Shown: positions 74 through 30,955 of the stretch, piece by piece | How positions within the stretch are numbered: the first letter of the stretch is position 1 | Layout of the letters: each line of letters starts with the position of its first letter | Virus record (IMG/VR): IMGVR_UViG_2778260994_000001 | Source of the DNA: a virus | Lineage: Duplodnaviria; Heunggongvirae; Uroviricota; Caudoviricetes | Strand: one strand, 5' to 3' | Length of the DNA stretch: 64,000 nt | Position numbers and translations under genes: made by a program | Notes under the pieces: model-generated | Told to the model about the DNA's origin: nothing | What the model saw: the letters and a program-made list of their open reading frames with translations, nothing else | Databases searched by the model: none

Positions 74-655
74 ATGCAATATGGTTATGCGAGAGTGTCA
101 ACTTTTGACCAAAATTTAGAATTACAACTGGAGGCGCTCAGGAGTTCAGGATGTGACCGGATTTTTGAAGATAAAATATCCGGTGCGAAGTCAAAACGAC
201 CAGGGCTTGATAAGCTGATAAAAGTGTTGCGGCCTGGCGATACGGTTGTTGTCTGGAAACTGGACCGAATGGGACGTTCTCTGATTCATCTTGTTGAGTT
301 ACTGAACTTTTTTTTATCAAACAACATTGAGTTTATTTCGGTTACAGAAGGGATAAAAATTAGCACATCAATTGGCCGCTTTGCTTACACGATGCTGAGT
401 GCGGCTGCAGAGCTGGAGCGGGAAAATATTATTGAAAGAACGCGTGCAGGATTGGCTGTGGCAAGGGCTAACGGCAGGATAGGAGGACGCCGTTCAAAAC
501 TGACACCAGAGCAATGGGAGCAGGCCGGACGTTTATTAGCGCAAGGAGTCCCCCGCAAGCAGGTCGCATTGATCTACGATGTGGCTCTGTCAACTTTGTA
601 TAAAAAACACCCCGCCAAACGAACGTGCATAGAAAGTAACGCTCAAACCAATTGA
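74..655 (+). CDS. Serine recombinase / DNA invertase (Hin/Gin/Cin family), intact
   Basis: N-terminal catalytic motif YARVST; C-terminal HTH (GRIGGRRSKLTPEQWEQAGRLLAQGVPRKQVALIYDVALSTLYKK) close to Hin/Cin; N-terminal half divergent from Cin. Confidence 0.85.
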   Translation: MQYGYARVSTFDQNLELQLEALRSSGCDRIFEDKISGAKSKRPGLDKLIKVLRPGDTVVVWKLDRMGRSLIHLVELLNFFLSNNIEFISVTEGIKISTSIGRFAYTMLSAAAELERENIIERTRAGLAVARANGRIGGRRSKLTPEQWEQAGRLLAQGVPRKQVALIYDVALSTLYKKHPAKRTCIESNAQTN

Positions 656-25216: not shown

Positions 25217-26248
25217 CTAATCGCCATCTTCCAGCAGGCGTACCATTGCCCCCGTTTCACTATCCAGGTTACGGATATAGTTCATGACAATATTCACGTT
25301 GGTCCAGCCACCAGCTTGCATGATCTCCGGTATTGAAACTCCGGCGCGGGCCATATCTCGCGCGGCTCCGACACGGGCACTGTGTCCAGACCAGGCCAGG
25401 TATCTCTGACCAGAGTCATCCTTAGCGCCGTAAATCAATCGATGAGTTGCTTCAAAAATCCCTTCCAGGGCGCGAGTTGATAGCTGGCTGGTGGCAGATG
25501 GCGCGGCAACACCATTTTTTCTGACACGGCAAAACAAGTAGTTATTCGGATCATCAGCCACACCAGAGACAGAAATCCATCGCTCGACCAGTTTAGTTAC
25601 CCCCAGGCTAAGTGCCTTCTCTACACCTGCGGTGCTAACCAGCGTTTTCGTTCTGCCAATATGGATTAACATTCTCCCACCGTCAGTACGTGAGATATCT
25701 TTAACCCTGATCCTGGCAATTTCGGCTATACGTAACAGGGTGTTATAAGCAATCCCCAGAAATGCCAGATTACGTATATCCTGGCAGCGATCGCTATTTT
25801 CCATGAGTGAACGAACCTGGTCGAAATCAGTGCGTTCGAACGCCAGTGCCTGTTTTGCACGTTCACCGGCATCAACGTTTTCTTTTCGGATCCGTCGCAT
25901 GACCAGTGAAACAGCATTACTGTCACTTGGTCGTGGCAGCCCGGACCGACGATGAAGCATGTTTAGCTGGCCCAAATGTTGCTGGATAGTTTTTACTGCC
26001 AGACCGCGCGCCTGAAGATATAGAAGATAATCGCGAACATCTTCAGGTTCTGCGGGAAACCATTTCCGGTTATTCAACTTGCACCATGCCGCCCACGACC
26101 GGCAAACGGACAGAAGCATTTTCCAGGTATGCTCAGAAAACGCCTGGCGATCCCTGAACATGTCCATCAGATTCTTGCGAACCTCATCACTCGTTGCATC
26201 GACCGGTAATGCAGGCAAATTTTGGTGTACGGTCAGTAAATTGGACAT
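25217..26248 (-). CDS. cre: Cre tyrosine recombinase
   Basis: 343 aa beginning MSNLLTVHQNLPALPVDATSDEVRKNLMDMFRDRQAFSEHTWK; loxP about 420 bp upstream. Confidence 0.97.
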   Translation of the reverse strand: MSNLLTVHQNLPALPVDATSDEVRKNLMDMFRDRQAFSEHTWKMLLSVCRSWAAWCKLNNRKWFPAEPEDVRDYLLYLQARGLAVKTIQQHLGQLNMLHRRSGLPRPSDSNAVSLVMRRIRKENVDAGERAKQALAFERTDFDQVRSLMENSDRCQDIRNLAFLGIAYNTLLRIAEIARIRVKDISRTDGGRMLIHIGRTKTLVSTAGVEKALSLGVTKLVERWISVSGVADDPNNYLFCRVRKNGVAAPSATSQLSTRALEGIFEATHRLIYGAKDDSGQRYLAWSGHSARVGAARDMARAGVSIPEIMQAGGWTNVNIVMNYIRNLDSETGAMVRLLEDGD

Positions 26249-26255
26249 TTAACAC

Positions 26256-26477
26256 TCAGATAATGGTTTTAAGTAAAGTGTACAGGATCGGCTCTGCCTT
26301 TACCTGTTTATGGTTCTCGTCATAGAAACGCCAGCGACCGCGCGTGCGTTCTATTTTCTCTTCACCGCGAGATAATGACAGTTGGTAACTATCACGCTCA
26401 AACCCTTTTGCCCGCCAGTAACCACGGTTTTTCTCAAGCTCAAGATGAGTGGACACTTTAGCAGCTGAATATCCCAT
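26256..26477 (-). CDS. Small basic ORF (73 aa) between loxP and cre, uncertain
   Basis: ATG preceded by GAGGTG at good spacing; stop 7 nt before the cre ATG. Confidence 0.3.
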   Translation of the reverse strand: MGYSAAKVSTHLELEKNRGYWRAKGFERDSYQLSLSRGEEKIERTRGRWRFYDENHKQVKAEPILYTLLKTII

Positions 26478-26574
26478 TTTTCACCTCTGATTGATTGGTG
26501 GTGCTAAGTGCGCTACGCGAAATCTGTAGGACTAACACCGCCAACATTTCGCAGATTTTACGTAGCGCAACCTT

Positions 26575-26647
26575 GATCAAATGATCAAGTGATCACTATT
26601 TGACCTGATAAGGTATTGAACTGTATGGATTTACAGGTAAATTGATC
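26575..26647. promoter_or_regulatory. Cluster of four GATC sites in the cre promoter region
   Basis: GATC at 26575, 26583, 26591 and 26644. Confidence 0.45.
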
Positions 26648-26666
26648 ATGTTCAATAACCCCTAAG

Positions 26667-26700
26667 ATAACTTCGTATAATGTATGCTATACGAAGTTAT
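26667..26700 (+). other. loxP recombination site
   Basis: Exact ATAACTTCGTATA-ATGTATGC-TATACGAAGTTAT. Confidence 0.97.
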
Positions 26701-26743
26701 TAGGTCCGAAGAGGAGTTTACGTCCAGCTGCGCATAAAAATCA

Positions 26744-26760
26744 AGAATTATTAGAGCAAT
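26744..26760 (-). promoter_or_regulatory. C1 operator-like site
   Basis: Core attagagcaat. Confidence 0.65.
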
Positions 26761-28277: not shown

Positions 28278-29762
28278 TTATTCATTAAGCCATGCCAGAG
28301 CTTCATCAACCTGCGCTTCGTCTTCGACGCTAAGCACTTCATCCTGGGGAACATAATCCGCCAGCATAGCGAAACAATATGTATCCCAATGGTCTGGTGA
28401 GTGCAGGTTGAGTTTTTTCTTCATATCCTCCTTACTCATCACCTTCCATTGACCTGCGGAGTTAATCCCTACAGGGATTTTCGACGCTTCCTCAATAGTT
28501 TCATTACCCTTATCCAGTCTCATACGACCAGATTTTACGGCCTCTGCGGCTTGAACGTTGGCATAAGCACGTTTATCAAAGTACAGGCTCTTATCTTCAC
28601 GGCTATGCATCTTTTTACCCCAGCGTATACGCTGTACGGTAATACCATAATACTCGTACATCAGATCCGCCGTTGCTTTACCCAAGCCATCGCCGTCTAT
28701 CGCTATGGTGATATTTGGGAATCGCTCAGGATTGCATTCTGCGAAAATTTTGGCGGCAAGCTGCGTTTCTGTAACGTCTGTGTATTCCAGCATTCGATAG
28801 TTGATTACACGGCGTTTATTTCGCTGGCCGGACACCATCATGATATTGATAACGGACTTATCCCGTCCCGTACCACCAGCAACGTCCACACATGCAAGCC
28901 AGCCCCATCCTTTGGCAATCTTGACTTTCCGCCGCGTTGCACGTTCAACCTCATCACGTCCAAGAAGGAAGCCATCCTGTGATTTAGGGAATAGGCCGCG
29001 TACCTTAATCATGTACATAGGGTTATCACGCCCGCCGTACTCCGCCAGCTTCATTTTGATAAATGCTGGCGTTACCAGCGGTGATTCCTCACTGTTAAGC
29101 GTGATCGCCGTATAAACGCCATCAGGGTTACCAGGACGCTTGGCCAGTTTATGGTGTGTATCGTAGAAATAGCCGCTTGGGCGTGTAGGCTGTGACAGTA
29201 ATAAGATGCGGTTATCCTGTCCGGTAAGAGCACCGGTGATGATACCGAAAGCTCTATCACTGACACCGGAGGCTTCATCGATAATATACAGAAGATGATC
29301 TGCGTGTTCACCGGCGAGAGCTTCTTCACTTCCCAGACGAAAGCCCTTCGGTACTACAGTCCATACACCTTTACCAGTAACCTCATAGAAAGCGGTTTCT
29401 GTCAGAACAAAATAATCAGCAAGCCATGGGAAACGGCTGGTGGCAGTAGCCCAGTTTATCTTGATGTACTTGAATATACCGGTCATTACCTGCTGAATTT
29501 TGTTCGCAACGATAATGGCGCGGGCACCGGGATACATGATTATGAACAACATGATCATGATAGAAGTCATGTCTGATTTCCCGGTACCGTGACCAGACGA
29601 AACAGATGTCTTGCTACCCTGTTCCTGCACAGACTCAATAATCAGATCCTGCTGCCAGGTAGGTGTTTTGCCGAACAAAACATCAGCGGCAGCAATCCAG
29701 TCATAACGATATAGCGCCACCAGCTCGCGCCAACGTGGATCCGTTACGCAACTTCTGGCCAT
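28278..29762 (-). CDS. pacB: Terminase large subunit PacB
   Basis: 494 aa; P-loop GHGTGKS; downstream of pacA. Confidence 0.9.
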
Positions 29763-30955
29763 TAATCATCATCCCCGTATAGCTTGCGGGTAACTTCTTC
29801 GTCTTCCTCCTCGTCTTCGTCCAGGTCTTGTTCCAGCCATGGGTCGTTTGATACACCTTCAGTATCAACATCTCCATAACCGCCTGTATCAACGATATCG
29901 GCGATTTCTTCCCTACGCTGCTCAATCCACAATGCGGCATCGGCGCGGCGGTTGGCGGCCCGTTCTCGCGCAACTTTGTCCAGATCTTCAAGAGAAGGGC
30001 CACCGACGGCTGTTTGCCTTTCCTCATCATCGGTATTGGTCTTCGGAGCACGCAGATCGGCTTTGATTTGCTCCAGCATCAGGGGCGGCACTTTCCCGCC
30101 ATGCGCCTCGATGAATTCAGCTGCTTCCAGCACTGACCAGTTATTTTCACGCTTTCGTTCGTATGCCAGCTTAACAATGCCAGCTTGCCCCATAGACAAA
30201 GCGTGCTTTTCCGCCTCCCGGCTTTCTTTTCGATAGTTATTCCGGATGCTGTAAATGGTGTTGATCAGGCTGCTTATCTGCGCGGAACAGCTGTTTAGCA
30301 TGCTCGCGATACGGTATTCAGGCGGAGTACCTTCATCATCGTCCTTTTGCTGATCGCGCATTTCCTGCACCAGGCGAATACACGTATCCCTGGCGTTCTC
30401 CAGCATAAGGAGATGAGAAAGAGACTTTTCAAGAAGAGTGGTTTCCAGAACATCGGCCCCGGACCGACGCAACATAGCGCGCGCGGCCTTCCGCGCTTCA
30501 ACGTTATCTATCAGGTAATCGCCAGCTTCGAATTCAAAGCGTTCACCATCATCATCCAGGGTGTCGCGTTCCAGGCGATCACGTAAGGTCCGGTGGGCGC
30601 GGGTGATCACGTCATGATCATCTGAACGATCATTTATGCGCTTATTTTGGCGCTTCGCATTCTCGACTGCGGCACTGACAACGGCATTAACTCTCTGTTT
30701 TTCCGCTATTTCAGCCGCAATATGATCACCTGCATGTTGATCATTAGAGTGATCAATGATCATGCTTTTTAGTGGCTTCCTGACTGGCTTATTTGGCTTG
30801 CGGCTGTCCGCAGTCCTGGTGTCTTCTTTGAAGGCACGGAGATAACGACGTGCGGTATTAGGGTTAAGATTAAACTCGGCGGCATACTGTGCGATGGTGT
30901 AACCACCATCTCGCGCCAGGCGAGCAAAATTCTTTTTGTGATCGTCCCAGGTCAC
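29762..30955 (-). CDS. pacA: Terminase small / pac-recognition subunit PacA
   Basis: 397 aa; contains the pac site; acidic C-terminus. Confidence 0.85.
30605..30761. other. pac packaging site (3 + 4 clustered GATC hexamers)
   Basis: GATC at 30605, 30616, 30628 and at 30724, 30739, 30751, 30758, all inside pacA. Confidence 0.7.

Follow-up and report, generated by a model that had tools for sequence, protein, structure and literature searches.

The open reading frame between loxP and cre in P1-type phage DNA is the known gene cra

The 73-codon open reading frame found between loxP and cre in the DNA analysed here (the whole stretch of 64,000 nt, hereafter the window) is cra itself and not a new member or variant of it, so that its detection amounts to the rediscovery of a known gene. 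We consider it very probable that this reading frame is a real coding gene and the first cistron of the cra-cre operon of phage P1. Comparison with relatives at the codon level shows cra to be a genuine protein-coding gene under purifying selection, as judged from its substitution patterns.

As a finding, the presence of this gene carries little weight, since it has stood in the P1 record since 1986 (X03453). The Dam sites, the LexA box and the three promoters that surround it are already in the reference annotation. What our analysis adds to the records and papers searched are modest refinements: the purifying-selection figures, the 7–8-nt junction with cre, the dissociation of Cra from Cre and the apparent loss of a 356-aa gene. 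Four decades on, Cra is without an assigned function, though several facts suggest activity: it is encoded 7 nt from cre, it is under purifying selection, some 13% of the complete E. coli genomes carry it, and it has relatives in phage-plasmids of the SSU5/pMT1 type, Yersinia pestis plasmids among them. No recombinase gene is more widely used in biology than cre. If its translation depends on cra, "native" cre constructs that carry partial upstream sequence would differ from the arrangement in P1.

Position, signals and identity of the reading frame

In this part of the window the DNA is of the phage P1 type, in reverse orientation. The sequence-only reading had described an ORF at 26256-26477 with an ATG start, a GAGGTG well placed before it and an end lying 7 nt ahead of the cre ATG, and all three were found as described. 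The cra CDS (26256-26477, minus strand) comprises 73 codons followed by TGA, with its start codon at 26477-26475 and its stop codon at 26258-26256. The minus strand upstream of the ATG reads CAGAGGTGAAAAATG. The Shine-Dalgarno sequence GAGGTG (26487-26482, minus strand) is separated from the ATG by 4 nt, all of them A residues, and its predicted duplex with the 3′ end of 16S rRNA has an energy of −7.1 kcal/mol. As a reference for duplex energies we used random 20-mers from the window, which gave a mean of −2.5 kcal/mol, with 9% of them at −6 kcal/mol or lower. The TGA is followed by the 7-nt spacer GTGTTAA (26255-26249) and then by the ATG (26248-26246) of cre (25217-26248, minus strand), which encodes a tyrosine recombinase of 343 aa, 100% identical to P1 Cre.

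The length of the ORF is unremarkable, several non-genic ORFs of 60–190 aa being located antisense to known genes in the 3-kb neighbourhood. Four GATC sites had also been reported in the region, and these were located at 26575, 26583, 26591 and 26644. By position, the cluster that they form is ordinary: when the 263 GATC sites were distributed at random in 64 kb, some 52% of trials contained at least one triple within 20 bp. Because the ORF length and the GATC cluster are both within chance, the case for real features comes from relatives and from annotation, not from local statistics.

The sequence-only reading had supposed that P1 carries no annotated gene at this location, and here it was wrong. 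In the reference P1 genome (AF234172) the ORF is cra, located at 207..428 and described as "putative cre associated function" (AAQ13977.1). The cre record of 1986 (X03453) lists it as "pot. ORF1 (aa 1-73)" and marks a putative ribosome-binding site for it, and the P7 name for the ORF is upf0.2. The 601-nt region shows 97–98% identity to records that include P1, P7, SJ46, phiW39 and RCS47, and these name the ORF cra, Cre-associated protein, ORF1 or upf0.2. Hundreds of P1-like plasmids have it as a called CDS. The gene reportedly received the name cra in the 2004 annotation of the P1 genome. A paper on loxP published in 2008 calls the short ORF between loxP and cre by this name (PMC2409434).

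The encoded protein matches PHROG 804 over positions 1–72 of 72 (E = 4.4e-34) and is 95.9% identical to P1 Cra (tblastn) and 94.5% identical to P7 Upf0.2. The order loxP (26667-26700), cra (26477-26256) and cre (26248-25217) corresponds to the layout of AF234172, a P1 coordinate x being found at 26684−x in the window. P1 cra, ORF1 of X03453 and P7 upf0.2 share with the window the position between loxP and cre, the length of 73 aa, the Shine-Dalgarno sequence and the 7-nt spacer. Window Cra differs from P1 Cra at three residues, with A5, E27 and Y31 in place of T5, D27 and C31. The window allele lacks the GATC present in the −35 hexamer of promoter pR2 in P1, and a fourth upstream Dam site is found in both the window and P7, whereas P1 has three.

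Codon-level evidence from relatives

Relatives of Cra with 57–73% identity were found in Cronobacter phage JK004 and in plasmid contigs of Salmonella, Klebsiella and other Enterobacteriaceae. Codon-level conservation had been named as a check on the ORF, and when carried out it spoke in favour of the gene: dN/dS is 0.06–0.31 between lineages, a range that covers only the pairs with estimable dS. The cra genes of JK004 and of locus L021 show 18 synonymous and 4 nonsynonymous differences, those of loci L015 and L018 show 31 and 15, and between diverged lineages dN is only 0.25–0.33, with synonymous sites saturated. Within the P1 clade, 19 sequences of cra contain 13 synonymous and 9 nonsynonymous segregating sites (pN/pS ~0.20). 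In the same sample, cre contains 72 and 8 (pN/pS ~0.035), cra thus being the less constrained of the two genes, although the constraint on it is clear. None of the 9 variable Cra residues falls on any of the 15 positions with conservation of 90% or more in members outside P1 (P = 0.11, suggestive only).

A strong Shine-Dalgarno sequence precedes cra in every lineage, even where it falls inside the CDS of the upstream gene, with predicted duplex energies of −6.4 to −12 kcal/mol. Frameshifted or truncated forms of cra are limited to a few singleton database entries (P0010, P0012, P0017 and P0019). Relatives of 69 and 68 aa also occur (P0007 and P0008), the length change of P0007 being in-frame, four codons short. 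The cra-cre junction was found in 695 of 5,426 complete E. coli genomes (~13%), and an annotated CDS covers the junction match in the nine full-length matches listed. In the index of the assembly collection, 3,337 blocks contain the exact cra allele of the window. In P1vir RNA-seq data, the log fold change at 10 and 30 min was 7.4 and 8.0 for cra and 10.4 and 11.1 for cre, both genes being early and flat, unlike late genes (PMC8201110, Table S1).

Could the frame be incidental, the ORF making no functional protein and the region being kept as a cre leader that carries pR2 and pR3? These two promoters, annotated as cre promoters, do lie inside the ORF, and chance ORFs of similar length are common in the window. 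Furthermore, a three-way comparison of the window, P1 and P7 looks neutral, the cra differences being mostly nonsynonymous (3–4 versus 0–1 synonymous), and the searchable literature yielded neither experimental detection of the protein, by Ribo-seq or proteomics, nor a functional study. However, every deeper comparison, and the larger P1-clade sample as well, puts the ratio of nonsynonymous to synonymous change well below 1. Frame, length and Shine-Dalgarno sequence persist at 40–68% protein identity, a divergence at which conservation of the nucleotide sequence, and with it that of the P1 promoter hexamers, is lost. The Cra family is also present at loci without any cre, and the sequenced length variant P0007 has preserved the frame. 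We therefore regard an incidental frame as highly improbable and retain the reading of cra as a coding gene.

In relatives, a gene encoding 352–356 aa (PHROG 7674) is located between lox and cra (L005, 2937-4007; L015, L018 and L021, 1934-3004; L031, 2500-3558). In JK004-type lineages it overlaps the start of cra by ATGA. The leader of this gene (CCAATCAATCA...AGAGGTG) is the one that precedes cra in P1, and for this reason P1 appears to have lost the gene; its sequence suggests a deletion between two GAGGTG Shine-Dalgarno sequences.

A variant lox site was observed in L031 (1511-1544), upstream of a cra-cre pair. It reads ATTACTTCGTATA-GCTCCAAT-TATACGAAGGAAT; its spacer is a different one, and the outer bases of its arms are altered. 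The Cre-type recombinase at this locus is 349 aa long, and the Cre of this lineage is 64% identical to that of P1 (L024). The lox site and Cre of the L031 lineage may constitute a natural orthogonal pair.

Control region and the junction with cre

The loxP site (26667-26700), with 13-bp inverted repeats that are 100% complementary and an 8-bp spacer, matches the lox site of AF234172 and X03453. On the cra side of it, the GATC at 26644-26647 (P1 37-40) corresponds to Dam site 1 in the annotation of the regulatory region of cre. A LexA box with a CTGT-N8-ACAG core (26619-26638) overlaps the divergent promoter P2coi; it is annotated at 46-65 in AF234172/AF503408, and its sequence is kept in the window and in relatives JK004, L015, L018 and L021. 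Three further GATC sites, 8 bp apart (TGATCAAN three times, 26575-26594), are Dam sites in or beside the −35 hexamer of pR1: the one at 26575-26578 lies inside the annotated hexamer (26580-26575), and the two others lie 8 and 16 bp further upstream. In relatives, a pair of GATC sites is preserved at the pR1 position. The GATC sites had been described as consistent with Dam-sensitive cre promoters; in the records they carry the annotation "Dam methylation site within the regulatory region of cre" (pR1/P3cre).

Three promoters are annotated on the minus strand. Promoter pR1/P3cre (26555-26580; AF234172 104-129 and X03453) has a −35 TTGATC and a −10 TAAAAT, both identical in the window. According to the records it is located just inside loxP and is the sole annotated promoter able to transcribe cra. 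Promoter pR2/P2cre (26372-26401; AF234172 283-312) lies within cra, with a −35 TTGAGC (TTGATC in P1) and a −10 CATTAT. Promoter pR3/P1cre (26260-26284; AF234172 400-424, identical) lies in the 3′ end of cra, with a −35 TGTACA and a −10 ATTAT; its position implies that its transcripts would begin just a few nucleotides ahead of the cre ATG. All promoter hexamers are retained in the window apart from the one change in the pR2 −35. A strict sigma-70 consensus scan of 26150-26750 returned zero promoters, which means that pR1 to pR3 are weak matches to the consensus, known solely from the records.

The change in the pR2 −35 hexamer (26396-26401) coincides with a codon of cra. The window codon for E27, GAG, gives TTGAGC, and the P1 codon for D27, GAT, gives TTGATC, so that cra has one GATC more in the P1 allele. 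Among the 19 sequences of the sample, the alleles E27/Y31/TCT and D27/C31/TCG co-segregate, 11 to 8.

The only other dense GATC cluster of the window is at 30577-30758, with eight sites in two groups. It falls within the pacA reading frame (about 29762-30955, minus strand), towards its 5′ side, where the Dam-controlled pac site of P1 would be expected.

An inverted repeat with 18-nt arms (26509-26526 and 26552-26569, 89% complementary) and a 25-nt spacer extends over the pR1 −10 hexamer and the leader (26509-26569). It is absent from the annotation of the P1 record and is kept in all Cre lineages examined, with almost no covariation. As RNA it folds only marginally (z-score −1.8), and an Rfam search of the cra leader gave no family match. 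The repeat might act as an operator, or it might form a cruciform or an RNA hairpin.

At the other end of cra, the distance from its stop codon to the start of cre is 7 nt in P1, in JK004/L021 and in L015/L018, and 8 nt in L024/L031, a metagenomic lineage in which Cra and Cre are 41% and 64% identical to the window proteins. The 7-nt spacers are unrelated in sequence (GTGTTAA in P1, CTAACTT in JK004/L021 and GCAGACA in L015/L018). The anti-Shine-Dalgarno duplex of cre, computed over the 20 nt before its start, is −2.5 kcal/mol in P1, +0.7 in JK004/L021 and −2.3 in L015/L018, to be compared with the random mean of −2.5. A moderate Shine-Dalgarno sequence, AAGGA (−5.9 kcal/mol), precedes cre in L024, whereas cre in the other sampled lineages appears to lack a usable one; in X03453, however, cre is given a ribosome-binding site marked as putative and weak.

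The kept gap of 7–8 nt, the apparently poor Shine-Dalgarno sequence of cre, the strong one of cra and the leader of phage D6 (see below) make it plausible that the two genes are translationally coupled. From these sequence features, we lean slightly towards coupling of cre to cra by termination-reinitiation on pR1 transcripts. Ribosomes would load on these transcripts at the strong Shine-Dalgarno sequence of cra, end translation at its TGA and re-initiate 7 nt further on at the cre ATG, in which case the cra start would control the pR1-derived share of Cre synthesis. Since pR2 and pR3 are located inside cra, much of the cre mRNA could not be coupled to cra translation, and transcripts from these two promoters would provide a low, uncoupled basal level of Cre.

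The E. coli pairs trpE-trpD and trpB-trpA are translationally coupled by termination-reinitiation. The cra-cre pair resembles them in having a strong upstream Shine-Dalgarno sequence, a stop codon a few nucleotides from the next start and, in all sampled lineages but L024, an apparently poor downstream Shine-Dalgarno sequence. It differs from them in that cre has cra-independent mRNA from internal promoters, and in that coupling is here a prediction from sequence.

The Cra family and comparison with known systems

Cra is a small basic protein (8.7 kDa, pI 9.7). Its match in PHROGs is to a family of unknown function only; this family, PHROG 804, is very small, with matches found almost only in enterobacterial phage-plasmids. 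Scans of Cra against Pfam, NCBIfam and PADLOC gave no meaningful match, and family and fold searches found no recognised DNA-binding family or fold and indicated no function. The best of five AlphaFold models has a pLDDT of 86.7, the remaining four being below 66; it predicts two helices at the N terminus, then a sheet of four strands and a last helix at the C terminus. An exhaustive search of 1.84 billion representatives produced 10 Cra clusters, one of which, P0051, was rejected as an artefact, being a spurious translation of a repeat. A profile search recovered 99 proteins of the family, nearly all stand-alone and of about 40–106 aa, none of which showed a Pfam domain or a fusion. Many homologues bear the NCBI/PGAP name creatininase. 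We rejected this identity, as no creatininase match was obtained in Pfam or NCBIfam; the label looks like a propagated annotation error, is unsupported and needs correction.

Homologues with about 40% identity to Cra are present in 787 records of SSU5/pMT1-type plasmids from Klebsiella, Yersinia pestis, Enterobacter and others. Across the family the motif WRAKG is invariant (GYWRAKGF in nearly all members), and a conserved tryptophan and a C-terminal L..LLK helix are found. The "putative Cre-associated protein" of the SSU5/pMT1/pHCM2 type (for example SSU5_068) shows this identity over its full length, together with GYWRAKGF, the tryptophan and the LLK helix. It is about 70 aa long, and its gene closes an operon of small genes. 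Unlike P1 cra, this gene has no recombinase neighbour and faces a plasmid replication gene (Rep3_N). The DNA around the SSU5/pMT1-type homologues has nothing in common with P1 and contains no adjacent cre, and a search of SSU5-like phages for a Cre homologue gave no match at E ≤ 1e-3.

Two genomic contexts of these homologues were observed. In SSU5-like loci L004 and L028-L030, the Cra homologue ends the small-gene operon that faces the replication gene. In a Pantoea-type element (L025/L026), a Cra homologue lies divergent beside the umuD-umuC operon. Such contexts hint at a role for Cra tied to the state of the plasmid or of the SOS response rather than to recombination. As for the neighbours themselves, neither those of the SSU5 type nor the 356-aa gene found before cra in relatives provided a functional clue.

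The reverse situation is found in phage D6 (L049 2251-2440), where the rox site is followed by a 152-bp gap and then by dre, and where there is no cra. D6 Dre is a Cre relative with 41% identity. Because the D6 Dre/rox system has no cra, Cra is dispensable for this family of recombinases. The dissociation therefore runs in both directions, SSU5-like elements having Cra without Cre and D6 having Dre without Cra. Since relatives of Cra occur without Cre and a relative of Cre occurs without Cra, we infer that Cra probably does something of its own and is no obligatory part of Cre/lox recombination.

The same observations bear on the view that Cra is a dedicated partner of Cre, tuning Cre/lox in vivo, for instance towards the resolution of dimers over multimers; in a second form of this view, Cra could autoregulate the cra-cre operon at the inverted repeat over pR1. 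Several points would suit such a partner: the 7–8-nt adjacency is kept in three lineages while Cre falls to 64–79% identity and Cra to 41–68%, Cra is of small size and basic, and the inverted repeat lying over pR1 is conserved. However, homologues are abundant in SSU5/pMT1-type elements without Cre, and one stands beside umuDC in the Pantoea-type element. D6 Dre/rox works without cra, and Cre by itself recombines loxP in vitro and in eukaryotes, as is well established. The protein belongs to no recognised DNA-binding family or fold in our searches. The inverted-repeat motif was sought near the cra homologues in SSU5-like loci and was missing there, so that nothing ties the repeat to Cra. On balance we consider a dedicated partnership, or autoregulation, unlikely. 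Cra was also considered as a recombination directionality factor of the Xis type or as an architectural factor of the PepA/ArgR type; both candidates were rejected, given that our searches recognised no DNA-binding fold and that co-occurrence with a recombinase is not consistent.

A joint reading would combine two roles, the dosage of Cre from pR1, a promoter adjacent to Dam and SOS elements, being set translationally via cra, and Cra acting in trans as a maintenance factor. It would make Cra a maintenance factor common to two unrelated phage-plasmid lineages which, in P1, could supply the in vivo bias of Cre towards dimer resolution. This combination appears improbable to us.

Like P1-type loci, to which it is homologous in layout, the D6 locus presents on the immC side the succession of c1, recombination site, leader and recombinase, and its leader keeps TTTCGCGTAGCG and AGAGGTGAA. 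Unlike in P1, the GAGGTG (AGAGGTGAA) is followed in D6 by a mini-ORF of 3 codons (ATG GTT TCA TGA) in place of cra. The stop codon of this mini-ORF overlaps the dre ATG, and the dre start is located 10 nt from the Shine-Dalgarno sequence. The D6 mini-ORF may be what is left of cra, or it may serve as a minimal device for coupling.
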